Position numbers and translations under genes: made by a program
The notes under the pieces: generated by a model
What the model was told of the DNA's origin: nothing
Database searches by the model: none
The model's input: only the letters and a program-made list of their open reading frames with translations
In this document: positions 6,627 through 52,942 of the stretch, one piece after another
Layout: the number at the start of each line of letters is the position of its first letter
Numbering within the stretch: the first letter of the stretch is position 1
Source: Clostridia bacterium
Lineage (GTDB): Bacteria; Bacillota; Clostridia; Christensenellales; CAG-138
Assembly (NCBI GenBank): GCA_030527115.1
Contig: JAUNBM010000002.1
Coordinates: 4,285-68,284 of the forward strand
DNA length: 64,000 nt
Direction of reading: 5' to 3'

Positions 6627-8046
6627 AACGTTCCGTCTCACAAGGCTGGATAAGAAAGTCAGGCGGGTCAAAAACCATGCCAAAAAGCGCGGCATTATGG
6701 AGCGGCACAAGGTCGTTACAGCCGCAAACAGGCAGATAAAACTTGCCAACAAAGAGCTTAAAAAGTCGCTCTTGCAGGCCCTTACCGCCGAGGAAGTCTT
6801 TGATATAAGGATGCAAAAGGCCTTAAAAAAGTATGATTTAAAGGCCAAGTGGGAGTACCGCAGGGTAAACCATGGATTTGCAAAGAAGATATTTGAAGCG
6901 GCGAAGGCAGGCGATACGGAGACGGAACGGAAGCTTTTGGAAAAGAACCGCGCCGAAGTCCTGGCCCTCGATAGCAAGAGGGCAAGGTTTGTCCTTCGAT
7001 GGGAGGAGAAGAAGAGCGCCTTTGTTAAGGCCGGCCGGGCGGACGAAAGCGTTGCCGAAAAGAGACGGTTGCAATTTGACAGGCAGTTAGAGGAGCAGAA
7101 AGCCAAGCTCTCCGAGCTTTATGAGATTAAGAGCGGGCTTGCGGCAAAAAATATCGAGCAGTTCGACGCAAGGACGGCGGACAAGCTGAAAGCGCTCTCC
7201 GATAAGCGTGCCGCGATTTTGGGCAGGGGTCGCACGGAATTGGCGGACGACGTCATTCTCTCCGTAAATAATCTCTGTATGTATTTCGGCGGCCTTCATG
7301 CCGTGGACGAGCTTAGCTTTGACGTCAAAAAGGGCGAGATATTCGGTCTGATAGGCCCCAACGGCGCGGGCAAGACCACGGTGTTCAACTGTATCACGCA
7401 GTTTTACAAGCCGACACGGGGCGAACTGCACTTTAAAAACAAGGAGAACGTCACCGTGAGGCTTACCGACTACTCGGTGCACGACGTCGTGCTGGAGGGC
7501 ATATCGCGTACCTTCCAAAATGTCGAGGTCATAAAAGAGGTTTCGGTTTTGGAGAACCTTTTGATAGCGGCGACGAGGTTTTATACGGCAAGCGTGTTCG
7601 AGCAGGCGCTCCACCTTCCCATCTTAAAGATAGAGGAGGAGCTTATAAAGCAAAAGGCGGAAACCGTTTTAAAGCTTTTGGGGCTTTCGACCTACAAGGA
7701 CTGGTATGCGTTCGGCCTGCCCTACGGCGTGCTTAAAAAGATAGAGATAGCCCGCGCACTGATGACGGAGCCAAAGCTCATCATCTTGGACGAGCCGGCG
7801 GCGGGGCTTAACGACACCGAGACTGCCGAGCTTGCCGAGCTGATTTGCAGGATTCGAAAGGATTTCGAGTGCACCATCCTCTTGGTTGAGCATGATATGT
7901 CGCTGGTAATGTCTGTGTGCGACAGGGTCTGCGCCATATCGTTCGGCAAGAAGCTCGCGCTCGGCACGCCCGACGAGATTCAAGCGGACAAGCAGGTGCA
8001 GGAGGCCTATCTCGGAGTTTCCGAGGAGGAGGGAGAGAGCCGATGA
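6610..8046 (+). CDS. LivG-type ABC ATPase with a ~214-aa Lys/Glu/Arg-rich N-terminal extension
   Basis: The C-terminal 265 aa carry Walker A GPNGAGKTT, the LivG-type insert, Walker B LIILDEPAAG and the H-loop VEHDM. The ORF is open from an ATG at 6610 with a GGGAGG RBS that overlaps the livM end. An in-frame TTG at 7240 would give a canonical-length LivG. Confidence 0.75.
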   Translation: MAEMFKTFRLTRLDKKVRRVKNHAKKRGIMERHKVVTAANRQIKLANKELKKSLLQALTAEEVFDIRMQKALKKYDLKAKWEYRRVNHGFAKKIFEAAKAGDTETERKLLEKNRAEVLALDSKRARFVLRWEEKKSAFVKAGRADESVAEKRRLQFDRQLEEQKAKLSELYEIKSGLAAKNIEQFDARTADKLKALSDKRAAILGRGRTELADDVILSVNNLCMYFGGLHAVDELSFDVKKGEIFGLIGPNGAGKTTVFNCITQFYKPTRGELHFKNKENVTVRLTDYSVHDVVLEGISRTFQNVEVIKEVSVLENLLIAATRFYTASVFEQALHLPILKIEEELIKQKAETVLKLLGLSTYKDWYAFGLPYGVLKKIEIARALMTEPKLIILDEPAAGLNDTETAELAELICRIRKDFECTILLVEHDMSLVMSVCDRVCAISFGKKLALGTPDEIQADKQVQEAYLGVSEEEGESR

Positions 8047-13897: not shown

Positions 13898-14155
13898 GTT
13901 AAAGCCCCTTACCGAGCGATATATTAAGACCAATCCGTAGAGCAATAAGACCGTTCACCTTCGTGGGCGGTCTAAAAAATTACAAACTCCTTCAAATCAC
14001 GTCGAAATATAATAGTATTTATTATTTTGGCACAAGAATGTTACAAGTCATTGTTAAACTTAATTTAAGACAGCAGGATCTAATTTTGAAGGAAAACGGA
14101 ATATTAAGTCGGGTTGATTCGTCAAAAAAGCGAAGTATCGCGGAAAGGGCATCAT

Positions 14156-15616
14156 ATGAAACGTTTATCGACCGTATTGTTGGCATTTTTAATACTTTTC
14201 ACCTTAGCGTGCCAGCCCACGCCGGAGGAGGATATTGTTGTAAACAAGGGCGAGGGTGATATGCGTGACGTCGTGCAGGATGCGCCCGCTGAAAACTCGT
14301 TGGATGGCATGGCCGGCGATACAGCGGCGTCCATGCAGGTCAGCTCTCTCTATGCCCGCCTGAACGCCCCCGAATATTGGACGATGGAGAACACCGATGC
14401 AGGCTTTTTGATAGTCGCAGAGGAGGCGCCTGTAATTCTGCCGCTTGCGGACAAGTTGCCCGTGGCGGAAGCGGAGCTTCGTTCCTTTACGCAGGAGGAC
14501 ATCGACAGGGTCGCAAGCGTTCTGTTCGAGGGCAAGGATGTAAAGTGGCACGAGAACATACGCGTTACAAAGGAGCAACTGATGGAGGACATTCTTTACT
14601 CCCAGGAGCGGTTGACCCTGGCAGAGGAGGGCGGCAGGGAGGAGAGCTACATTCAGCATTGGCGGGACAGGGTTAATGAGTATCAGGAACAATATCTCGC
14701 CGCGCCCTACGAGGCGGATTTGAAGCAGATTGACCTCAGTATCACCACCATACCCAATGAATACCGTGAGGACTGCCAAGGCGTATCCGCAGACGCAACG
14801 ATCGACGGGGACGCGTGGACGTTTTACGCAAGGACGGGTAAGGGGAACTATATTCGAGCGGAAATAAGCACTTACAGCAGTATGTGCCTGGATGAGCCTT
14901 ACAAGGTTCAGTTGTCCAAGGAGGACGCAATAAGACAGGCGAGCGAGCTGGTGGCACAGATAACCGATGAATTAACCGTCTGCCATGCTTCTCCCGTTGC
15001 AACGCCGAAGGAGCAGACCGAAAGGAACTGGGGCTGGCAGGTGATATTCATGCGGGGCATCAACGGTGTGCCCACAGCCTATGCTTCAGAGCAGATAGGC
15101 GGGGACATGGATACAACGGTGAGCGAACCTGTCGGCTATGAGCAACTGACCGTAGTGTTGGACGACAAGGGGCTTTGCTCGTTTTCATGGCACAGACCTA
15201 TGCAAATTACGGGTTTTGTCAGCGCCAATGCCGAACTTCTGTCCTTTGACGAGGTTGCGCGGCGAGCCATAGAGCATATCGCGGCTCGATGGAAATACAA
15301 CGCCGATACGGACAAGGACATACGCATAATGATTACTCGTGTTGAACTGGGACTGTGGCGAATTGCCAACCGCAATGGCGGCTACTATTTCGTTCCCGTG
15401 TGGCACTTCTTCTCCGATGCCGAGCATTCCAAGGAGTATTATGAAAGCAACTACGGCGAAGGGAAATGGGAGGACAGAAAGACCGTTATTATGCGTGAGG
15501 TTGAAGATTCCGACGGCGACATCAGCGGAGGCATGACCGGAGACCCATATGCGTGGGGTTCGATAACCGTCAACGCCATCGACGGGAGCATAATAGATAA
15601 GGACAAAGGCTATTAA
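14156..15616 (+). CDS. Lipoprotein of unknown function (paralogue A)
   Basis: MKRLSTVLLAFLILFTLAC lipobox followed by QPTPEE. Start set at the ATG at 14156 (GGAAAGGG RBS) rather than the track start at 14114. Paralogous to 15638-17107. Confidence 0.65.
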   Translation: MKRLSTVLLAFLILFTLACQPTPEEDIVVNKGEGDMRDVVQDAPAENSLDGMAGDTAASMQVSSLYARLNAPEYWTMENTDAGFLIVAEEAPVILPLADKLPVAEAELRSFTQEDIDRVASVLFEGKDVKWHENIRVTKEQLMEDILYSQERLTLAEEGGREESYIQHWRDRVNEYQEQYLAAPYEADLKQIDLSITTIPNEYREDCQGVSADATIDGDAWTFYARTGKGNYIRAEISTYSSMCLDEPYKVQLSKEDAIRQASELVAQITDELTVCHASPVATPKEQTERNWGWQVIFMRGINGVPTAYASEQIGGDMDTTVSEPVGYEQLTVVLDDKGLCSFSWHRPMQITGFVSANAELLSFDEVARRAIEHIAARWKYNADTDKDIRIMITRVELGLWRIANRNGGYYFVPVWHFFSDAEHSKEYYESNYGEGKWEDRKTVIMREVEDSDGDISGGMTGDPYAWGSITVNAIDGSIIDKDKGY

Positions 15617-15637: not shown

Positions 15638-17107
15638 ATGAAGAAACTTACCCTAATCCTAATTGCCCTGATACTTCTCACCGCGTGCCAGCCCACGCCG
15701 GAGGATGAGATAGTCATCCAGCGTAGCGACGCGGATGGCGAAACGGGCGGCGAAATTGTGCCGCCGCCGGAGTTTCCGGCTACCATTCAGGGGACGGCGA
15801 GCTTTGAAGCGGACGGCGTGCCTACGGAGCTTGTGGTCGATGCCGAGGTAAAAACTTACGATTCTGCGGGCTATTTCCGCTGTCCCATTGAGATAGTTCC
15901 CTATTCGAACGAGGTTAAAAAGAGCTTTGTAAGCGCCTGTGTTTCGGACGCCGAGGTGTTTTCGGACAGTCCCAGCAGGGGTGTGACGAGGGATATGCTA
16001 AACCGTCAGCTGGAGTTTTATGTGTCGCTTCTCGACGAAAGCAATCCGCGGTGGGAGTATTTATTTGAAGTTCGAGAAGAAAAAGACCCGGAAGCACTCA
16101 TGGATTACGGCAAGGGGGAAATCGAGCTTTCCATTCAAAGGGTTCAGGAGAGGCTTCTCACCGCTACGGAGCAAATAGAGGGAACGAGGGCGGACTTGGA
16201 TAACCTTTCAAGCCCCGCAGAGCTGTGTGCGGACACGGGGAATATGTACCCCGCCCTAATTTGGCTAACCCCACAGGACAACAACACGGAAACCTATGCC
16301 TTAATGTCGGGCGCTACGGGCGGCAATCCGTCATTCGCTATCAATTCCCAAATAATGGAGCTGTATAACAGCTATGACATTTCAATCGATATTTCCATGG
16401 ACGACGCAAGGGCTGTGGCGGACGAGTTCGTAAGCAAGATCAATGGGGTAAACCTGATTTTTGCAGGCGAGGGAAAGGATTACATCTACGATTTTTCCTA
16501 TCCGTTCAACGAATGGGGAGCTTCGGCAACCTATGTGTTTGTCTATGTTCCGCAGGTGAACGGCGTGCCGCTGAACTATGTCGATATCGAGTATTTAATG
16601 GAACAAACGAGATGGGAGCTGCGGTTTCCCGAAGGCATGGTGAATTCGCCCGTTTATCAAAACTACCTGTATGTCTTTGTAAACGATTACGGGATCAACT
16701 GTGTTTCGTGGCGCCACGCAGCCGAATACAGGATAATTGAGGAATCCAAAACCGCCGTGTCCTTGCTTTCCTTCGACGAGGTTATGGAAATTTTCTATCG
16801 TCATATCGAGTACGGCACAAACTTTTGCAGTACGAATAGCTCCAAGCTTTCAAAATCTTCCCGCCAGACTCTTGAAATCGACCAAATCACCTTAGGTTAT
16901 GCGCTTGTCCGTTCGGGAACGGGGGCAAACGACTTTGAACTCATACCCGTGTGGGACTTCTACGGAAGGATGCACGAGGTCTACGACAATCCGGGTCAGA
17001 TAATGACCGAGGAGGACGGCACCCGTTACGAAACCACGCTCGGCAGAAGCTATCTTACGATAAACGCAATAGACGGCACGATAATCGACCGGGTGCGGGG
17101 CTATTAA
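15638..17107 (+). CDS. Lipoprotein of unknown function (paralogue B)
   Basis: MKKLTLILIALILLTAC lipobox plus QPTPED. It shares with paralogue A the C-terminal blocks IPVWDFYG / VPVWHFF and TINAIDGTIIDRVRGY / TVNAIDGSIIDKDKGY. Confidence 0.65.
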   Translation: MKKLTLILIALILLTACQPTPEDEIVIQRSDADGETGGEIVPPPEFPATIQGTASFEADGVPTELVVDAEVKTYDSAGYFRCPIEIVPYSNEVKKSFVSACVSDAEVFSDSPSRGVTRDMLNRQLEFYVSLLDESNPRWEYLFEVREEKDPEALMDYGKGEIELSIQRVQERLLTATEQIEGTRADLDNLSSPAELCADTGNMYPALIWLTPQDNNTETYALMSGATGGNPSFAINSQIMELYNSYDISIDISMDDARAVADEFVSKINGVNLIFAGEGKDYIYDFSYPFNEWGASATYVFVYVPQVNGVPLNYVDIEYLMEQTRWELRFPEGMVNSPVYQNYLYVFVNDYGINCVSWRHAAEYRIIEESKTAVSLLSFDEVMEIFYRHIEYGTNFCSTNSSKLSKSSRQTLEIDQITLGYALVRSGTGANDFELIPVWDFYGRMHEVYDNPGQIMTEEDGTRYETTLGRSYLTINAIDGTIIDRVRGY

Positions 17108-17358: not shown

Positions 17359-18024
17359 TTATTTTACCGCCAGCAGGTAGCTTTCATCGAGCCGGCGGTA
17401 TAGTTCGTTTTGCGGGACGGAGCCGTCTAGCAGGAGGGTATACCAGCTTCGTTTGTTCATGTGATAACCGGGGAAATACTTTTCTCCGAGAGGAAGCAGG
17501 GACAGCTCCTCCGGGCGAATTCTAAGGTCGATGATTTCCGCCGTCTCGTCGGAATCAATGCCGAGCTTGCGCTTGGAGACGGTAAGCAACGCGGCATACC
17601 ACTTGCCGGTATCCTTCCTGCGAAAGACGGCGTTGGTGGGGAGCTTTTGCCACAAAAACTCCGGCTCGTCCCCATAGGTTCGCCTAACATGGGCTATCAG
17701 CTCCTTGGCGCAGTCCGACTTAAAAACGTCCGGCTCGAAGCAGTCCCCGGCAATCCTTTCAAGGGTCGCTTCAATCTCGGCGCGGATCAGCCCCACCAGC
17801 GCGCCGCTCGCCGTCGGCGCACGGTAGAGGAGATATTCGTCTCCGCCATCCCGGTCGATAACCTTCGTTTCAACCCTGCCGCCGTCCGCAATGCTCACGG
17901 TCAGCAAAAACTGCCCGTTTGCAATCTCGGTATGATAGTGGTAGAAGCCGTCCGCCTTTGAGAAGCCGAAGGACTGAAGCCGCTCATAGTCCGGCTTTTT
18001 TAGCCTGAACAGGTTTTCGTGCAA
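17359..18024 (-). CDS. MmcQ/YjbR-family domain protein
   Basis: The C-terminal KWYAALLTVSKRKLG...IDLRIRPEE...PGYHMNKRSWYTLLLDG resembles the YjbR fold family. Start set at TTG 18022-18024, 8 nt after GGAGG and downstream of a promoter at 18073-18101. The upstream part of the track ORF overlaps that promoter. Confidence 0.6.
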   Translation of the reverse strand: MHENLFRLKKPDYERLQSFGFSKADGFYHYHTEIANGQFLLTVSIADGGRVETKVIDRDGGDEYLLYRAPTASGALVGLIRAEIEATLERIAGDCFEPDVFKSDCAKELIAHVRRTYGDEPEFLWQKLPTNAVFRRKDTGKWYAALLTVSKRKLGIDSDETAEIIDLRIRPEELSLLPLGEKYFPGYHMNKRSWYTLLLDGSVPQNELYRRLDESYLLAVK

Positions 18025-18072
18025 GTCGATTGCCTCCGTTTCCGATAAGTCCCTTAATCCTTTCAGCTCCTT

Positions 18073-18101
18073 AGTATAGCAGAGCGTAGCACGGTTGACA
18101 A
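18073..18101 (-). promoter_or_regulatory. Sigma-A-type promoter (TTGTCA-17-TATACT) for the YjbR-like gene
   Basis: Hexamers read on the minus strand with a 17-nt spacer, located just downstream of two terminators. Confidence 0.5.
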
Positions 18102-18127
18102 CTGAGAACGGGGAAAACCCGCCGGAC

Positions 18128-18162
18128 AAAAAAAGAAGCCGCAAAGTCGAAACGATTGCGGC
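18128..18162 (-). terminator. Intrinsic terminator (second of a tandem pair) ending the radical-SAM/peptide/kinase operon
   Basis: On the minus strand, GCCGCAA-11 nt-TTGCGGC is followed by TTCTTTTTTT. Confidence 0.55.
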
Positions 18163-18221
18163 AGGCGCGTTTAAATGGATGGGCAAAAGAGCGGAAGAGC
18201 TTATAACCGCCATGCCGCGAA

Positions 18222-18246
18222 TTGAAAAGGGCGGCAAAACGCCGCC
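18222..18246 (-). terminator. Intrinsic terminator (first of a tandem pair) after the kinase-PqqD gene
   Basis: On the minus strand, GGCGGC-GTTTT-GCCGCC is followed by CTTTTC, 12 nt after the stop codon. Confidence 0.5.
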
Positions 18247-18257
18247 GATAAGCTTTC

Positions 18258-19406
18258 CTATTCGTCGAGCGCGCCGACGCTTCGCAGGGAATCCAAAAAC
18301 TCCCGAATATCGCTGGCGGCGGTGGCTTCGTCAACGGCGAATTCGTCCAGGACGCATTCTATCAGGGCTCTCTCGGTGGTGGGATGCAGGAGCCGCTCCC
18401 ATAAAAAAGCCCCCACGGTGTTGAGCATGATTGCAACCGGCGCGCCGTCGGCTTTGATTCCTGCCATAACGGCGACATGGTTGTCCAGCAGACGCCTCAT
18501 CACATAGCCTTCTTTAATTCTCATATCCTTTTCTCCTTTATCAAGCAGTTCAATCTCATTTGGACGGGCCAGCATAGCCGCAAGGTATTCGCCCGCGCCC
18601 GGCTCGTTGGAACAATAATAGCGATAGACGGGAACGGTGAGCGCAACCCTTTCAACCGAGTTCAGAACATTGGCGGCGGCGACCCCGTCCCACAGCGGCT
18701 TGGATACCCTCTGCAGGAGCAAAATGAAGGCGCTGTGGAAATCCAGCCGTTGAAGACGGCAGAAGGGATGTTTTCGAATGTCCACGATGGCGCAAAGGGG
18801 CGCGGACTCGTTGACATAAACGTTCTCCTTGCCGCTCCAGGGCGCTCCGTAGGCGGTAAACCCGCCGTTTTCCGGGCGAAGAAGCGGGCGGTCGGCATTC
18901 AGCATCTTAGAATCGGGAACGGACTTTAAAAAGTTCTGCGCCGCCGTACTCTTGCCCGCGCCGGACGGGCCGGTGAAGCAGACAGTCCGTCCGTCATGTA
19001 TAACGGCGGAGGCGTGAATGGATAAAGCCCCATTTTGGGCGCTGATCTCCTCAAAGGCGAGCCGAAAAAGCGTTCGCGCCTGCTCCGTCAACGTACCGTC
19101 GTCGTCCCTTGCCCCGTCCCGAATATAAAGGGTTAACCTGTCCCTTTGCGTGGACAGCCAAAGGGCACATAGAGCATTTTTGGCAAAGCGAAAAATCCGC
19201 CCGTCTATGGCTTTTAAAACCTCGATTTGAGCGGATGCAAAAGCAAGCGTGCCGTCCGGTTCCTGTCCGGAGACGACGCTCATAATCACCGGCGTTTCGC
19301 CGTTCGTTTCGCCGCACTCGAATGGTTCAAGCGCGGCTATCAACGTTGCGGGCAAAAGGTCGGACGCAAAAACGGAGACGGCTGTTGCCGCTATCCTAAG
19401 GAGCAT
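18258..19406 (-). CDS. HprK-like P-loop kinase domain fused in frame to a C-terminal PqqD-family (RiPP recognition element) domain
   Basis: LSIHASAVIHDGRTVCFTGPSGAGKSTAA has the pattern of HPr-kinase-related peptide kinases. The last 88 aa (MRIKEGYVMRRLLDNHVAV...AFLWERL...EFAVDEATAASDIREFLDSLRSVGALDE) look like PqqD. An internal AAGGAG (18533-18538) sits 8 nt before the ATG at 18524. Confidence 0.7.
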   Translation of the reverse strand: MLLRIAATAVSVFASDLLPATLIAALEPFECGETNGETPVIMSVVSGQEPDGTLAFASAQIEVLKAIDGRIFRFAKNALCALWLSTQRDRLTLYIRDGARDDDGTLTEQARTLFRLAFEEISAQNGALSIHASAVIHDGRTVCFTGPSGAGKSTAAQNFLKSVPDSKMLNADRPLLRPENGGFTAYGAPWSGKENVYVNESAPLCAIVDIRKHPFCRLQRLDFHSAFILLLQRVSKPLWDGVAAANVLNSVERVALTVPVYRYYCSNEPGAGEYLAAMLARPNEIELLDKGEKDMRIKEGYVMRRLLDNHVAVMAGIKADGAPVAIMLNTVGAFLWERLLHPTTERALIECVLDEFAVDEATAASDIREFLDSLRSVGALDE

Positions 19407-19422: not shown

Positions 19423-19587
19423 TTAAGTGTTGTCTCCGTACCAGCCTTGTACGCAAGAGGAAACCGGCGTCGCCTCATTATTATAATAGTCAAAGCTACA
19501 TGTTCCGCCGAAACCAGAGGAGGCCACATGCTCCTCAAAGTTCATTCCCATTACGACAGCGTTTGGCTTTTCGTAAGTCTTTTTCAT
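19423..19587 (-). CDS. Candidate RiPP precursor peptide, 54 aa: MKKTYEKPNAVVMGMNFEEHVASSGFGGTCSFDYYNNEATPVSSCVQGWYGDNT
   Basis: I translated this by hand; it is below the 60-aa cutoff of the ORF track. GGAGG lies 8 nt upstream. Its ATG overlaps the radical SAM gene stop (ATGA). It sits between a rSAM/SPASM gene and a PqqD-containing gene. Confidence 0.6.
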   Translation of the reverse strand: MKKTYEKPNAVVMGMNFEEHVASSGFGGTCSFDYYNNEATPVSSCVQGWYGDNT

Positions 19588-20819
19588 TCGTTTATCCTCC
19601 TTGTTTTTTCTCGCATAACCGTATGGAGTATGCGAAGATTTTTATTACACGGCTGTTCGCCGGGCAATCCATTGGTTCCGCCGGATGCGAGCGCATAACG
19701 CGCCGGGCAAAAGCGGCATTTTCCGAAGTAGGCGCAGGCCCGGCATTCCTCGCTGCGCCGGTAGCTCAGAGCGGCGTCGTTGACCTGCCGCCAAGCCGGC
19801 ATAAAACCCTCCTTCAATACGTTGACCGAAGCGAGCGGGAACTGGCCGCAGGGTTGCATATTGCCGAAATATCCTATCGTGAAGGAGCAAAGTCCCGCCA
19901 CGCAGGGCATCCTTGAGCCTGACGCCTCCGGCTCTCCTTGCAAAAGGGGCTCGATGAAATCCTCATCGCAAAGCGAGAAGGTTTCCATGCCGTTCTTCTG
20001 GATCGACCTCTGCCAGAGCCGCGACTGCTCCTCGAAGGAGAGAGCGTAATCGGAGAAGCGCTTTCCCGAGCTGACGACGGGCTCGAACATATCGGAGTCC
20101 AAATTTATCCTGCCAAAGCTCATGCTCTTAGCATAGTCGAGCAGGGCGTCGAAGTCCTCGTAGTTGTAGCGCGACATCGTAAGCTGAATATCGGTAGGCA
20201 CTTTGGCCTCCTTTAAAAGCCTCAAAGCGCGGTCAACCTTGAAAAAGGCGTTTTTTGAGCCGGTAACCCGTTCATAAACCTCCGGACAGCTCCCATAAAC
20301 CGAAAGCCGGACAACATACGGGGGCATTTCGTGAAGTCGCTTGGCGGCTTCCTCGTCGATCAGCGTTCCGTTGGTGAGCAGAAGGATGAACACTCCGCGG
20401 CTCTTTAGATGCTCATATATCCGCCAAAAGTCCGGATGGTAGAAGCACTCGCCGCCGGTCAATCCGGCGTACAGCAGGCCCGCGTCGATTGCTTCGTCCA
20501 TTATGCCTATCCACTCGTCTCCGTTCAAAACCCGCTCGGGGTACTTGCCTTCGGAGGAATGCACATAGCACATCTTGCAATCGAGGGTACAGTGAGGGGT
20601 AAGCTCAAAGGTGCCTTTCAACGGGAGCTTCCGCTTCGTATACTCACGGCGAAGCAGGTTGAAAAGGACGGAACTGCGTTCCTCGGCCTTTGAGGCGGCA
20701 AGCTCCGAAAACAGCGTGGAAGCTCCGCCGTTCTCCGGGGAGATGGACGTGGGCTTCGGTTCGCCGGCGAAATTTGCCGGCTCTGCCTGTGGGGAGTCTT
20801 GAACCACATTTTCTGCCAT
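19584..20819 (-). CDS. Radical SAM/SPASM-domain peptide-modifying enzyme
   Basis: CTLDCKMC (CX3CX2C) is present, together with the C-terminal GNMQPC (Gx4C) and CRACAYFGKCRFC cysteine cluster typical of SPASM auxiliary Fe-S sites. Start set at the ATG at 20817-20819 behind AAGGAGG. Confidence 0.85.
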   Translation of the reverse strand: MAENVVQDSPQAEPANFAGEPKPTSISPENGGASTLFSELAASKAEERSSVLFNLLRREYTKRKLPLKGTFELTPHCTLDCKMCYVHSSEGKYPERVLNGDEWIGIMDEAIDAGLLYAGLTGGECFYHPDFWRIYEHLKSRGVFILLLTNGTLIDEEAAKRLHEMPPYVVRLSVYGSCPEVYERVTGSKNAFFKVDRALRLLKEAKVPTDIQLTMSRYNYEDFDALLDYAKSMSFGRINLDSDMFEPVVSSGKRFSDYALSFEEQSRLWQRSIQKNGMETFSLCDEDFIEPLLQGEPEASGSRMPCVAGLCSFTIGYFGNMQPCGQFPLASVNVLKEGFMPAWRQVNDAALSYRRSEECRACAYFGKCRFCPARYALASGGTNGLPGEQPCNKNLRILHTVMREKTRRINE

Positions 20820-20894
20820 CGTCAATCCTCCTTTCCCGGAGCATAGCCTCGGAGCCATATAACAAAATCGAGTATGGCGAAGCGACAACTCCGC

Positions 20895-21003: not shown

Positions 21004-21549
21004 CTAATCTTGAAATTGCTTTGAAATGCAGAGCGACAAAGTCTTTAAAACCAGCCTTTCCGCCTCGTCGATTCGGGCGGCGGGGTCGCCCGAAACCAGC
21101 CCGACCGCGCCGATAGCCTCGCCGTTAACGATTATCGGGAACATATCCTGGCAGGGGAAGGAATGCTCCTGATCCCGCACCAGCTCGATATTGATCGGCT
21201 GGTTTTGCGTTTTCAACGACTGCTTTGCCAGGATAGCGGCCTGAAACGGCCTTGTCAGCGGCTTATCCGCCAGCGTCCTTTTTAGCTGGCCGGCGCAGGC
21301 GACCATCCTTTCGCGGTCGCAAACGAACGCCGTCATTCCGGTTGCCCCGTTGATCGCCTGAACGATCTCTTGAGCCTGGGTTGACAGCTCGGCGACGGGG
21401 GAGTAGGGCTTCAAAATGATACTGCCCTCGCGGTCGGTAAATATCTCCAGCGGATCGGATTCCCGAATCCGCATGGTTCGTCTAATCTCCTTGGGTATAA
21501 CGATTCGCCCCAGCTCATCAATGCGTCTAACGATTCCGGTTGCTCTCAT
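21004..21549 (-). CDS. spoVT: Stage V sporulation protein T (AbrB-type DNA-binding domain plus GAF-like domain)
   Basis: MRATGIVRRIDELGRIVIPKEIRRTMRIRESDPLEIFTDREGSIILKPYSP is near-identical in pattern to the Bacillus SpoVT N-terminus. The length (181 aa) also fits. Confidence 0.9.
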   Translation of the reverse strand: MRATGIVRRIDELGRIVIPKEIRRTMRIRESDPLEIFTDREGSIILKPYSPVAELSTQAQEIVQAINGATGMTAFVCDRERMVACAGQLKRTLADKPLTRPFQAAILAKQSLKTQNQPINIELVRDQEHSFPCQDMFPIIVNGEAIGAVGLVSGDPAARIDEAERLVLKTLSLCISKQFQD

Positions 21550-36254: not shown

Positions 36255-36586
36255 TTTGAGCAAGCTGGACGATTGCGCCCTAAAAGGGGTGAGGAAAGTC
36301 CGAGCACCACAGGGAAGAGTGCCGGGTAACACCCGGTGGAGGCGACTCCAAGGACAGTGCAACAGAAATAAACCGCCGCATTTGCGGTAAGGATGGAAAG
36401 GCGAGGTAAGAGCTCACCGACGACATGGCGACTTGTCGGGCCTGTAAACCCCACTCGGTGCAAGATTGAATTGAGAGCATTTAATGGCGTCCCGTCAAGC
36501 TCTTTGTAATCGCTCGAGCCGTCGGGCGACCGGCGGCCAAGATAGATAATCGTCCTCGACAGAACTCGGCTTACGGCTTGCTCAAA
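36255..36586 (+). ncRNA. rnpB: RNase P RNA (M1-type ribozyme)
   Basis: Contains the universally conserved P4 strands GAGGAAAGTCCG (36290-36301) and ACAGAACTCGGCTTA (36559-36573). The terminal helix pairs TTGAGCAAGC with GCTTGCTCAA. End coordinates are approximate (+/- 5 nt). Confidence 0.85.
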
Positions 36587-36606
36587 AATTTTTAGATGAG
36601 GATAGT

Positions 36607-51449: not shown

Positions 51450-51455
51450 GCAGCA

Positions 51456-51673
51456 AAGGCGATGAACGGAGGAGTAGGTTTTCAATCCCCGCAAAGAGAG
51501 CGTGGCCGAGGCTGTAAGCCGCGACGGGGACAAGACCGAAGGACGACCGCGAGCCGTATGTCAAAAAAAGGCATACCGTATCAGGCGTTAACGATAATGA
51601 GTGAGGCTTAGGCCTAATCAGGGTGGCACCGCGGATTTTCCGTCCTTGAATGGATTGAAAGTCCGTATTTTTT
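51456..51673 (+). promoter_or_regulatory. T-box riboswitch leader controlling hisS-aspS
   Basis: Present are the AG box (AAAGAGAG, 51493-51500), an F-box-like CGTTA, the T-box sequence AATCAGGGTGGCACCGCGG (51616-51634), and a terminator CGGATTTTC/GAAAGTCCG (51632-51665) followed by a T-run. The T-box 3' end overlaps the terminator 5' arm, as expected for an antiterminator switch. Confidence 0.8.
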
Positions 51674-51688
51674 AAAACAGGAGGAGCT

Positions 51689-52942
51689 ATGGCTATCTAT
51701 CACGCCCCAAAGGGGACAAAGGACGTATTGCCGCAGGAGAGCTACCGCTGGCAGTATATTGAGAATATCATACGGGGGATAGTTCAAAAGTACGGACTTT
51801 TGGAGGCGAGAACGCCCGTAATCGAGCATACCGAGCTGTTCCTTCGCGGGGTTGGCCAGACCACCGACGTGGTGCAAAAGGAGATGTACACCTTTTTGGA
51901 CAAGGGCGGCCGCAGTATAACGCTGAAGCCCGAGGGAACGGCGGGCGCGGTCAGAATGTTCATCGAAAACGGTCTGTTTTCCGAGCCTCAGCCGACCAAG
52001 CTGTTCTATCTGTATTGTCCGGTGTTTCGCTATGAGCGGCCTCAGGCGGGGAGGCTCAGGGAGCATCACCAGTTCGGAGTTGAGATCTTCGGAGCCAAGG
52101 ATGCGAGCGCGGATGCGGAGACGATAGCGATAGCCGCGGAGCTGTTCGACACGATCGGCATAGAGGATCTTAGGGTGAGGCTGAACAGCATCGGCTGTCC
52201 CAAGTGCAGAGGGGAGTATCAGAAGGCGCTAAAGGACTATTATTCCGAGCATCTGAAGGAGCTTTGCCCGACCTGTCTGGAGCGCTTTGAAAAGAATCCG
52301 CTCAGGCTTTTGGACTGCAAGGAGGCGCGTTGCCAAGAGATTGCGAAGAACGCCCCGCACACGATGGACTTCATATGCGAGGAATGCCGGGAGCATATGG
52401 AAAAGCTCGAAGGCTATCTGGAGCTTATGCATATAGATTATGAGCTTGACCCGATGCTGGTGCGCGGACTGGACTACTATACCAAGACCGTGTTCGAGAT
52501 AGTTACCGATATGCCCGGGGTGCAGGGAACGCTGTGCGGAGGCGGCAGATACGACGGGCTTATCAAGGAGCTGGGCGGGCCGGATATGCCCGCAGTTGGG
52601 TTCGGGCTCGGCATGGAGCGCCTCCTGCTGATGATGGAGGAGAGCGAACAGCCGCCGCGCTATGAAATCTTTTTGATCTCGATGGACGAGGAGAGCAAAA
52701 AAGCGGCGTTTGAGCTGTGCTTCCGGCTTCGCAACAGGGGAGTGAAAGCCGAATGCGACCATATGGGCAGGAGCCTCAAAGCGCAGATGAAATATGCGTC
52801 CAAGATGGAAACGGAGTATTGCATCGTCATAGGCAAAAATGAGATTGAGAGCGGCAGGGCGATGCTGAAATATATGCTGGCGATGAACGAGGACGAGCCG
52901 ATTGAGCTTAATCCCGACGCCATAATTGAAAGGATAAGATGA
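51689..52942 (+). CDS. hisS: Histidine--tRNA ligase
   Basis: APKGTKDVLP, the class II motifs, and CGGGRYD. Confidence 0.95.
   Translation: MAIYHAPKGTKDVLPQESYRWQYIENIIRGIVQKYGLLEARTPVIEHTELFLRGVGQTTDVVQKEMYTFLDKGGRSITLKPEGTAGAVRMFIENGLFSEPQPTKLFYLYCPVFRYERPQAGRLREHHQFGVEIFGAKDASADAETIAIAAELFDTIGIEDLRVRLNSIGCPKCRGEYQKALKDYYSEHLKELCPTCLERFEKNPLRLLDCKEARCQEIAKNAPHTMDFICEECREHMEKLEGYLELMHIDYELDPMLVRGLDYYTKTVFEIVTDMPGVQGTLCGGGRYDGLIKELGGPDMPAVGFGLGMERLLLMMEESEQPPRYEIFLISMDEESKKAAFELCFRLRNRGVKAECDHMGRSLKAQMKYASKMETEYCIVIGKNEIESGRAMLKYMLAMNEDEPIELNPDAIIERIR

Follow-up and report, generated by a model that had tools for sequence, protein, structure and literature searches.

A kinase-like protein fused to a RiPP recognition element in a three-gene Clostridia operon, and a conserved internal start that suggests the recognition element is also made alone

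A three-gene operon for a ribosomally synthesized peptide natural product (RiPP) encodes a kinase-like protein fused in frame to a PqqD-type RiPP recognition element (RRE), the small domain that grips the precursor peptide. A Shine-Dalgarno sequence (SD) and start codon at the N-terminal boundary of the RRE, kept inside this gene in all 86 fused ORFs examined, suggest that the RRE is also made alone, probably to serve the partner radical SAM (rSAM) enzyme. The operon lies in a 64,000-nucleotide stretch (the window) of contig JAUNBM010000002.1, positions 4,285 to 68,284 of the forward strand, from Clostridia bacterium assembly GCA_030527115.1 (Christensenellales, CAG-138). Its features, in coordinates of the window, are as follows.

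19584..20819, minus strand: rSAM/SPASM peptide maturase, 411 aa from ATG 20819, without an N-terminal RRE; SD AAGGAGGA at 20826..20833.
19423..19587, minus strand: precursor peptide gene, 54 aa, with leader MKKTYEKPNAVVMGMNFEEHVASSG containing YxxP and a core with two Cys 14 residues apart; SD AAGGAGGA; its ATG overlaps the rSAM stop codon (ATGA).
18258..19406, minus strand: full-length ScmC-like (predicted HprK/PEPCK-fold) kinase-like protein fused to a PqqD/RRE domain, 382 aa; ATG 19406 has no SD and lies 16 nt after the precursor stop.
18567..19406, minus strand: kinase-like part, residues 1-280, an N-terminal beta-rich subdomain plus a P-loop domain.
18533..18538, minus strand: internal SD AAGGAG, formed by codons Lys290-Gly291(GGA)-Glu292, 8 nt before the internal ATG.
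18258..18524, minus strand: nested reading frame for a free 88-aa RRE (M295 to E382, plus stop).
18230..18246, minus strand: intrinsic terminator closing the operon (GGCGGCGTTTTGCCGCC followed by CTTTTCAATT).

The first-pass annotation had observed that the PqqD-like domain is carried by a protein with a P-loop resembling HPr-kinase-related peptide kinases, not by the rSAM enzyme, and that AAGGAG precedes an in-frame ATG at the start of the PqqD-like part; on rereading the sequence, each of these observations proved correct. The P-loop string IHASAVIHDGRTVCFTGPSGAGKST is residues 130-154, and GPSGAGKST maps to 18945..18971; the internal ATG, 18524..18522, is codon 295 and leaves 88 aa. An in-frame TAA lies 9 nt upstream of ATG 19406, which lacks an SD, as had been stated. 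The rSAM ORF has 76 residues before the first Cys of CTLDCKMC, of which the first ~35 are low complexity and absent from homologues. The interpretation placed on these observations is also supported: both domain assignments are right, and the proposal of a free RRE made from the internal start, its speculative part, now has strong comparative support, although no protein evidence.

The C-terminal region is a complete RRE by sequence and by predicted structure. It scores 50.8 bits against the Pfam PqqD model (PF05402; gathering cut-off 23.4) over residues 325-379. A structural model of the ORF and a search for homologues with the two domains paired had both been named in advance as ways in which the domain assignments could fail, and neither went against them. 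The AF2 model of the ORF has pLDDT 95 and pTM 0.90, and residues 295-376 form three beta strands and three helices (E295-297/301-306, E309-314, E325-328, H330-338, H345-355, H360-376). Foldseek superposes this part on the lasso RRE TbiB1 with its leader (5v1v_A; TM 0.82, rmsd 2.1 A over 89 columns). A profile search of the PDB aligns it end to end with stand-alone TbiB1 (residues 3-85, E 1e-9), M295 falling on the MKIS N-terminus of TbiB1, and also matches TfuB1, PbaB1 (9x90), and LppB (9x8z). Leader binding was not assayed, but a cognate precursor with a recognisable leader motif is encoded next to the fusion gene; Y5-x-x-P8 matches the [Y/W]xxP motif of lasso and LPP (linear polyphosphorylated peptide) leaders (PMC13381572).

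The N-terminal region has a predicted PEPCK/HprK-type fold. Foldseek matches it with probability 1.00 to ATP-dependent PEPCK (E 6e-7) and to HPr kinase/phosphorylase (HprK/P) entries 1kkl, 1jb1, and 1knx (E 5e-5 to 2e-4; TM on target 0.3-0.55). In an alignment of 48 sequences H131 (19014..19016), S148-G149, and G151-K152-S153-T154 of the P-loop G146-T154 (18945..18971), and D172 (18891..18893) of D172-R173-P174 are invariant or nearly so; R173, P174, G187, P189, W190, and G192 are further invariant positions. The His, GxSGxGKS/T, and Asp motifs, the Asp lying about 20 residues on, align with the IHG, GKSGVGKSE, and ADD motifs of HprK, both in PDB profile hits to HprK/P (2qmh, 1jb1, and 1ko7; E 1e-3) and in an hhalign comparison (94% probability) with a B. 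subtilis HprK sequence entered by hand rather than retrieved from a database. The region is nonetheless below the cut-off of every curated kinase family model: there is no Pfam Hpr_kinase_C hit at E <= 0.1, and the NCBIfam scores are 23.4 of 200 for HprK_rel_B (TIGR04355), 17.3 of 200 for HprK_rel_A (TIGR04352), and 20.6 of 125 for ScmC (TIGR04249), so the protein is not an ScmC equivalog. For the Pfam ScmC domain (PF27840) a Pfam scan of the window protein returned no hit, but whether the copy of Pfam scanned contains that model was not ascertained; precomputed annotation gives PF27840 for P0001 and P0002 among the homologues P0001 to P0005, marks it weak for P0003 and P0004, and omits it for P0005, which leaves assignment to this family undecided. 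Phosphorylation of a Ser in the substrate was not measured, and a different nucleotide-dependent chemistry is possible.

The rSAM enzyme has no room for an RRE of its own, as the first-pass annotation had supposed. It matches Pfam Radical_SAM at 81 bits, and its translation contains CTLDCKMC and a Cys-rich C-terminal region, CRACAYFGKCRFCP; NCBIfam hits to GeoRSP, MftC, ScmE, StsB, and PqqE are all below their cut-offs. In PDB alignments residue 64 of the rSAM enzyme aligns with SkfB residue 106, leaving 63 residues before the aligned stretch, and residue 70 of the rSAM enzyme aligns with PqqE residue 31. Homologues have about 45 aa before CxxxCxxC, and across the family the median is about 53 aa.

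The precursor belongs to a family of 128 distinct small genes in about 80 related loci, often in tandem arrays. M1, K2, Y5, P8, F15, and Q20 are near-invariant (Y5 in 127 and P8 in 126 of 128), V21-V22-A23 and S25-G26 are conserved, and 101 of 128 have exactly two Cys. NCBIfam and Pfam give no family for the precursor; the only hits are chance-level matches (E 0.2-0.4) of the leader N-terminus to the paeninodin-family and cyanobacterial lasso leader models.

The fusion is old and widespread, mostly in gut and rumen Clostridia MAGs. Among the best 150 hits about 70 cluster representatives are fused, and a few more carry the domains in reversed order. A search of species-representative genomes, based on an alignment of 12 sequences, found 128 genomic relatives; 80 loci were retrieved, and together with the window and earlier loci they give 86 non-redundant fused ORFs. 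A metagenome scan was not made. The usual gene order is rSAM, precursor(s), fusion, ABC exporter. Comparison of homologues for split against fused architecture, which had been suggested as a check, shows that the domain pairing recurs in both forms.

The codon aligned to M295 is a start codon in 86 of 86 ORFs (83 ATG, 3 TTG); TTG is only 12-25% of Leu codons in the three genes concerned. The internal SD plus ATG is more than chance. In the window the internal SD is the strongest in front of any of the 17 in-frame start codons of the ORF, and strong SDs are the norm there, both the rSAM and the precursor gene using AAGGAGGA. Across the family the median SD duplex energy is -9.55 kcal/mol at the junction, compared with -10.2 at 136 precursor starts, -3.0 at 627 other in-frame ATGs, and -3.1 (first ATG) or -4.8 (best candidate) at the N-terminal start of the long ORF; the internal SD is the stronger in 75 of 81 loci. 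Part of this signal follows from the Glu/Lys/Gly-rich linker itself, since the energy expected from the amino-acid sequence alone is -6.8 to -7.1 kcal/mol, but synonymous resampling in 29 clusters (<=60% identity) gives an observed energy of -9.9 against an expected -6.8, with 26 of 29 lower (Wilcoxon p = 5e-6). Single-linkage clustering at 50% identity collapsed the family to 6 clusters, too few for a test (p = 0.06). Codon identity at amino-acid-identical sites is 0.67 in the 7 columns before the Met against 0.49 overall, which exceeds all 237 other 7-column windows. The Glu of the SD core is GAG in 57 and GAA in 4 cases, against 52% GAG gene-wide, while neighbouring Glu columns prefer GAA. 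A control on the conserved Met of the (I/V)MLNEV motif matched only 6 sequences and was dropped. Stand-alone PqqD paralogues in the same loci begin at this boundary, and one of them (1404-1865 of related locus L069) keeps the same linker-like SD and ATG as a normal gene start.

What the analysis demonstrates is the composition of the locus: an HprK-type motif set in a P-loop domain of predicted PEPCK/HprK fold, fused in frame to a complete PqqD-type RRE; an rSAM enzyme without an RRE; a precursor with the Y-x-x-P leader motif that lasso-type RREs bind; and a strong SD and start codon exactly at the RRE boundary, conserved at the nucleotide level in the 86 fused ORFs, while the start of the long ORF usually has no SD and lies next to the stop of the upstream precursor gene. 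The mechanism is inferred, and is considered more likely than not to be right. In this view one cistron gives two proteins. A small amount of full-length protein would be made by coupling or re-initiation after the precursor gene, and its tethered RRE would hold the leader so that the kinase domain phosphorylates a Ser of the precursor; the best candidate is the conserved Ser24/Ser25 at the leader-core junction, 19-20 residues after the Tyr of YxxP, and the Ser3 that LppK phosphorylates lies 18 residues after its Tyr. A larger amount of free 88-aa RRE would be made from the internal SD and ATG and would present the same leader to the rSAM/SPASM enzyme in trans, as PqqD does for PqqE; that enzyme would then cross-link the two core Cys. 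There is no proteomic, ribosome-profiling, or biochemical evidence for either isoform, for kinase activity, or for RRE-rSAM contact, and delivery in trans, also proposed in the first-pass annotation, remains an inference. Some observations weigh against the model. In most relatives the SD-to-ATG spacing is 10-11 nt, whereas precursor genes in the same loci use 7-9 nt (the window's own spacing is 8 nt). In a naked-RNA fold of the internal start region, which was uninformative, the structure is weak and the window's SD is mostly or partly paired (unpaired probability 0.22). Among more distant fused representatives 19 of 67 have Y, L, I, V, or F instead of Met in the aligned column, so the position is also a hydrophobic fold position; five of the 19 have a Met 1-3 residues upstream, and DNA was not examined for these sequences. 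The pTM of 0.90 suggests that the RRE is docked on the kinase domain, so that the fusion alone might serve both enzymes; the coordinates of the AF2 model were not inspected for access to the beta3/alpha3 leader groove, and complexes of the rSAM enzyme and leader with the free RRE or the full-length protein were not modelled.

The alternative that survives best, though it is considered unlikely, is that only the full-length fusion is made. The conserved Met would be a structural hydrophobic residue of the first beta strand, and the purine-rich stretch before it an acidic linker, or at most a translational pause site that lets the kinase domain fold first; the tethered RRE would serve the kinase domain and, through a kinase-rSAM complex, the rSAM enzyme. 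The hydrophobic residues at this position in distant fused members and stand-alone paralogues, the linker contribution of about -7 kcal/mol, the spacing, and the docked model favor this reading. Against it stand the start codon in 86 of 86 ORFs with all three Leu replacements being TTG, the position-specific choice of GAG, synonymous conservation above every other window of the gene, SD strength equal to that of real gene starts in the same loci, and the arrangement in L069; a pause site, moreover, needs no start codon.

It is also possible, but again unlikely, that the N-terminal domain is not a peptide kinase, a question independent of the isoforms. It could be an ATPase or nucleotidyl/phosphoryl-transfer enzyme with another role, such as activating a residue for elimination or cyclisation or chaperoning the rSAM enzyme, or a non-catalytic scaffold. 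The best structural matches are to ATP-dependent PEPCK rather than HprK/P, curated kinase-family scores are far below cut-off, and ScmC itself has no tested function, no literature on it having been found. However, the Walker A motif, the preceding His, and the Asp-Arg motif align with HprK/P, the only characterised RiPP enzymes of this fold that sit next to an RRE are Ser kinases (PMC13381572; PMC8498205), and the precursors keep a conserved Ser at a fixed distance from YxxP. A recent accidental fusion by loss of a stop codon (the other option raised in the first-pass annotation), an assembly or sequencing error, or a decaying gene pair is not supported and is in practice refuted: although separate ScmC-only and PqqD-only genes exist in some related loci, the in-frame fusion is shared by relatives down to about 25-30% identity, the 86 ORFs, from many Clostridia lineages and down to about 29-30% identity to the window protein, are fused in the same frame with no stop, the linker is modelled with pLDDT about 90, and the catalytic motifs are conserved.

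The closest characterised analogues are the paeninodin-type lasso peptide and LPP systems, in which an HprK-like kinase (PadeK, LppK) sits next to a discrete RRE (PadeB1, PbaB1, LppB) in the A-K-B order, leaders carry [Y/W]xxP, and phosphorylation is on Ser (PMC13381572; PMC5067487; PMC8498205). The gene order K then B matches the domain order here, the RRE matches PbaB1 and LppB by sequence profile, a conserved Ser lies about 18-20 residues after the Tyr, and an ABC exporter is present in most related loci. What differs is that kinase and RRE form one reading frame with a conserved internal start, that the kinase domain is ScmC-like and has no Pfam Hpr_kinase_C hit, that the cores are two-Cys peptides, and that the hosts are gut Clostridia rather than Bacilli. 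The partner is an rSAM/SPASM maturase; the operon has only three genes between its upstream region and the terminator, with no lasso cyclase or B2 protease and no SpI peptidase or NTP-transferase, and related loci show rSAM and ABC exporter genes instead.

In the SynChlorMet cassette (ScmC with the rSAM/SPASM proteins ScmE and ScmF) and the HPr-rel-A system (HprK-related kinase A, TIGR04352, with PqqD family chaperone TIGR04353), as named in NCBIfam, an HprK-related or ScmC-like protein is likewise associated with PqqD-type chaperones and rSAM/SPASM enzymes, and some homologues of the window protein carry the precomputed pair PF27840 plus PF05402. Scores are far below the equivalog cut-offs (PqqD_rel_X 16.6 of 35, in addition to those above), and, going by the NCBIfam names alone, each component has its own model, which suggests separate genes. 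Literature searches on SynChlorMet, ScmC, and HprK-related kinases with PqqD or rSAM enzymes found no experimental work on either system; the single hit for HPr kinase with RiPPs and rSAM enzymes only mentions lasso clusters. As in the PqqD-PqqE and MftB-MftC pairs, in which the RRE acts in trans, the rSAM/SPASM enzyme has a short N-terminus and a small PqqD-fold protein would bring it the peptide; here the RRE gene is nested inside an enzyme gene instead of standing alone, and contact between the RRE and the rSAM enzyme is not shown. Two in-frame isoforms by internal initiation, giving a free C-terminal domain alongside the full-length protein, occur for SctQ/SpaO of type III secretion, CheA long/short, and Fha of the V. 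cholerae T6SS; no case was found in the literature for an RRE or a RiPP tailoring enzyme, and for this locus the isoforms are predicted, not observed.

RREs are the common handle by which RiPP enzymes find their substrates, and how one leader is shared between several enzymes is an open practical question for pathway reconstitution and engineering; the sequence data point to a simple genetic answer, in which the same reading frame would give an enzyme-tethered and a free RRE. In its fullest form, which is only tentative, a conserved gene-within-a-gene would split one leader-recognition module between a Ser kinase and an RRE-less rSAM enzyme, with the ratio set by translation (weak coupling for the long form, a strong SD for the short form). 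This would define an uncharacterised RiPP class, widespread in gut and rumen Clostridia, of phosphorylated, doubly Cys-cross-linked peptides with lasso-type YxxP leaders; the chemistry of the family, presumably rSAM cross-links plus phosphorylation, is unknown. Codon optimisation would destroy the internal SD, which should be kept in heterologous expression of these clusters.

A promoter-like sequence at 18544..18517 on the minus strand overlaps the internal start but was rejected as the source of a short product, because its -10 hexamer overlaps the ATG and runs downstream of it, so that such a transcript would lack the start. An out-of-frame TGATAA just 5' of the SD could be a relic stop codon, but it is not evidence; the frame to which it belongs is closed 37 codons upstream. 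Current annotation hides this large, unnamed family, the fusion being called 'PqqD family peptide modification chaperone', 'EcfA2', or hypothetical.

The ORF under study reads as 382 aa on the minus strand, and nothing resembling an SD precedes its ATG; an in-frame TAA lies 9 nt upstream of this start, and the stop codon of the precursor gene lies 16 nt before it. The string IHASAVIHDGRTVCFTGPSGAGKST corresponds to residues 130-154. Within the ORF, AAGGAG is followed after 8 nt by an in-frame ATG, which is codon 295 and leaves 88 residues. The observation made in the first-pass annotation, of this P-loop string and of an internal SD and ATG ahead of an 88-aa PqqD-like segment, therefore holds, since every one of its sequence statements is correct. 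The features of the locus, in the order in which the minus strand is read, are as follows.

21004-21549, minus strand: SpoVT homologue (173 bits, below the equivalog cut-off of 236), flanking the operon upstream
20819, minus strand: real start (ATG) of the radical SAM/SPASM gene, behind AAGGAGGA
18258..19406, minus strand: kinase-like/RRE fusion ORF, 382 aa, starting at ATG 19406
18538-18543, minus strand: out-of-frame TGATAA abutting the internal SD
18533..18538, minus strand: internal SD, AAGGAG
18524..18522, minus strand: internal in-frame ATG, codon 295
18246..18230, minus strand: good intrinsic terminator following the fusion gene
17359-18237, minus strand: YjbR/MmcQ-domain ORF, flanking the operon downstream, with a long, odd N-terminal extension

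The C-terminus passes the Pfam PqqD model (PF05402, 50.8 bits, cut-off 23.4) and gives sub-threshold hits to the lasso-type PqqD chaperone models of NCBIfam. The N-terminal part gives only weak hits, to HprK_rel_B, ScmC, HprK_rel_A and generic P-loop families; homologues carry the precomputed Pfam pair PF27840 (ScmC) plus PF05402. Structural modelling had been put forward at the outset as a check that could overturn either domain assignment, and it upheld both. An AlphaFold2 model built on a 48-sequence alignment is very confident (mean pLDDT 95, pTM 0.90), and a Foldseek search of the PDB matches residues 1-280 to ATP-dependent PEPCK (E 6e-7) and to HPr kinase/phosphorylase (E 5e-5 to 2e-4), and residues 295-382 to the lasso RRE TbiB1 in complex with its leader (5v1v_A, TM 0.82, rmsd 2.1 A). 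A profile search of PDB sequences aligns the C-terminal domain end to end with TbiB1 (E 1e-9) and also hits TfuB1 and the 2026 structures PbaB1 (9x90) and LppB (9x8z), while the region around the P-loop aligns with HprK/P (E 1e-3). H131, the P-loop residues S148-G149 and G151-K152-S153-T154, and D172 and P174 (R173 in the 12-sequence alignment) are invariant or nearly so in the family. They align with the His, P-loop and Asp-Asp motifs of HprK; the HprK sequence used in that alignment was not drawn from a database record, so this is a lead that agrees with the PDB profile search rather than an independent test. The protein is thus a PEPCK/HprK-fold, kinase-like domain of the ScmC branch fused to a complete RRE, and the interpretation in the first-pass annotation, that the PqqD domain is carried by a kinase-like protein, is supported.

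Two genes lie upstream of the fusion gene on the same strand. The first encodes a radical SAM/SPASM enzyme, and the second is a 54-aa gene behind another AAGGAGGA, whose ATG overlaps the rSAM stop codon. The rSAM enzyme has 76 residues before CTLDCKMC, of which about 35 are low complexity and missing from homologues, which have about 45 residues there. Its residue 64 aligns with residue 106 of SkfB, whose first ~100 residues are its own RRE domain, and its residue 70 aligns with residue 31 of PqqE, which uses PqqD in trans; the enzyme therefore has no RRE. The small gene is a precursor; its leader is MKKTYEKPNAVVMGMNFEEHVASSG, and its core has two Cys 14 residues apart. The operon has no adjacent ABC exporter, unlike most related loci. 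The downstream YjbR/MmcQ-domain ORF has a promoter-like site at 18101..18073 inside its listed reading frame, so that its real start is probably further downstream.

A word-indexed search found only five fused relatives, at 39-51% identity, but an exhaustive profile search showed that this was a sensitivity limit: among the best 150 representatives, about 70 are ScmC plus C-terminal PqqD fusions of 360-395 aa. A few have the reverse order, with PqqD at the N-terminus and the ScmC-like domain at the C-terminus (representatives P0107, P0113 and P0126); these, for which neither DNA nor genomic context was examined, suggest independent fusion events for the same domain pair. A scan of species-representative genomes found 128 relatives, and the 80 loci retrieved are almost all MAGs of gut and rumen Clostridia, including Acutalibacteraceae, Oscillospiraceae and Christensenellales. 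The recurring order is rSAM, one or several precursors, fusion, ABC exporter; the rSAM N-termini have a median of about 53 aa, which is an upper bound. The loci hold 128 distinct precursors, in which the near-invariant leader positions are M1, K2, Y5, P8, F15 and Q20, and V21-V22-A23 and S25-G26 are well conserved. The cores have exactly two Cys in 101 of 128, 10-15 residues apart, with a tail of 10-12 residues. Y-x-x-P is the motif that lasso-type RREs bind (PMC13381572). In the locus of the closest relative (L001 1315-2330 and 2812-2964), the rSAM gene upstream of the fusion is broken into two frames of 246 aa and 106 aa and the precursor has only one Cys, which could reflect a decaying copy or an assembly error; a second intact rSAM gene and a two-Cys precursor (7831-8013) lie downstream of the ABC exporter.

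Homologues were also compared for split versus fused architecture, as had been proposed beforehand, and both forms occur. In Acutalibacteraceae MAGs (loci L030, L034, L043, L046, L054, L059 and L062; for example L030 4885-5187, 5184-6240, 6236-6508, 6397-7272), a second, split module lies directly downstream of the fusion gene and has a stand-alone PqqD (92-101 aa), a second, shorter rSAM gene (~350 aa), a ~90-aa precursor (MKKKYIAPESKL...CFRYQF) and an ScmC-only gene, so that fused and split versions of the same pairing sit side by side. The out-of-frame TGATAA that abuts the internal SD could be a remnant of the stop codon of a once-separate kinase gene, but may equally be chance, since that frame is closed 37 codons upstream. 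The fusion is ancient, and the alternative raised in the first-pass annotation, a recent fusion by loss of a stop codon, is rejected.

Internal initiation was the speculative part of the finding, and it is where the comparative data are most informative. In 86 non-redundant fused ORFs, the codon aligned to M295 is ATG 83 times and TTG 3 times, and TTG makes up only 12-25% of Leu codons in those three genes; the search patterns that retrieved the loci lie elsewhere in the protein, so selection of the loci did not favour this result. Among 67 more distant fused representatives, 19, for which no DNA was available, lack Met in the aligned column, and five of these have a Met 1-3 residues upstream. 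The median duplex energy with the anti-SD is -9.55 kcal/mol at the junction, compared with -10.2 at 136 precursor gene starts in the same loci and -3.0 at 627 other in-frame ATGs of the same ORFs. The spacing, however, is 10-11 nt in most relatives, against 7-9 nt at precursor genes and 8 nt in the window itself. The start of the long ORF has a median of -3.1 (first ATG) or -4.8 (best candidate), and the internal SD is the stronger in 75 of 81 loci; the lack of an SD at ATG 19406, remarked on in the first-pass annotation, is thus a family trait. The first ATG lies within -34 to +40 nt of an upstream precursor stop in 37 of 62 loci, which fits translational coupling.

The amino acids of the linker (Glu, Lys, Gly) alone would give about -7 kcal/mol, and codon choice adds about 3 kcal/mol. 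In 29 clusters of at most 60% identity, the observed mean is -9.9 against -6.8 expected, with 26 of 29 lower (Wilcoxon p = 5e-6), although the sequences are related and p-values therefore overstate independence. Among 898 pairs at 55-90% identity, codon identity at amino-acid-identical sites is 0.49 overall but 0.67 in the seven columns before the Met, higher than in all 237 other seven-column windows. The Glu in the SD core is GAG 57 times and GAA 4 times, against 52% GAG in the rest of the genes, whereas the neighbouring Glu columns prefer GAA; in the subgroup to which the window belongs, the SD is built on a GGA Gly codon in 5 of 5 genes with Gly at that position, although GGA is only 5-32% of their Gly codons. 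Stand-alone PqqD paralogues begin exactly at this boundary. One of them, at 1404-1865 of locus L069, is very close to the fused RRE domains (E 2e-36), and its untranslated upstream stretch reads like the fusion linker (KQEERLD, with caggaggag) before ATG-AAG-GCT-AAG. It keeps this SD and ATG as an ordinary gene start, and an NTP_transf_5-like ORF precedes it instead of an ScmC domain; it looks like a copy of the nested RRE cistron that carried its internal ribosome-binding site along.

The analysis itself shows the domain identities, the absence of an RRE from the rSAM enzyme, the YxxP leader, and the nucleotide-level conservation of an SD plus start codon at the RRE boundary; the mechanism that follows is inferred, and nothing in these data shows that either protein is actually made. 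In this view, which is the most likely one, the long form would be made at a low level by coupling to the precursor gene and would use its tethered RRE to position the precursor for phosphorylation, whereas the short form would be made from the strong internal SD and would deliver the same leader in trans to the rSAM/SPASM enzyme, which would then cross-link the two Cys. The kinase inference rests on the conserved catalytic motifs and on the only characterised relatives in this kind of context: HprK-like kinases of paeninodin-type lasso and LPP clusters are encoded directly before a discrete RRE and phosphorylate a Ser (PMC8498205, PMC5067487, PMC13381572). In LPP the target is core Ser3, 18 residues after the Tyr of YxxP; here a conserved Ser24/Ser25 lies 19-20 residues after Tyr5, which makes it the best candidate site, but this is a guess. 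The rival explanations are a fusion-only model, in which the conserved Met is structural or the SD-like stretch is a pause site, and a non-kinase chemistry for the ScmC-like domain.

RREs fused to tailoring enzymes, discrete RREs serving rSAM enzymes, and HprK-like kinases next to RREs are all known, and the domain architecture alone is ordinary. The protein is a member of the PqqD family, but it is not an equivalog of ScmC, HprK-related kinase A or B, or HprK/P, since all scores are far below cut-off. The cluster is not an LPP or lasso cluster, because it has no SpI peptidase, cyclase or B2 protease. As far as could be found in the literature, three things are new: the kinase-RRE fusion as the hallmark of a large rSAM RiPP family in gut Clostridia; its precursor family; and, above all, the conserved internal initiation site that would release a free RRE from within the enzyme gene. 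The nested start is a clear and cheaply testable prediction. Databases currently call these proteins 'PqqD family peptide modification chaperone', 'EcfA2' or hypothetical.

Elsewhere in the window, two tandem paralogous ORFs of 500 and 489 aa (14114-15616 and 15638-17107, plus strand) both have lipoprotein-like N-termini (L..ACQPTPE) and both end in ...INAIDG(S/T)IID...GY; no family search was run on them. The window also holds a bacterial RNase P RNA class A (36257-36588, plus strand; 286 bits) and a T-box leader (51453-51650, plus strand; 99 bits) directly upstream of the ORF at 51689..52942.
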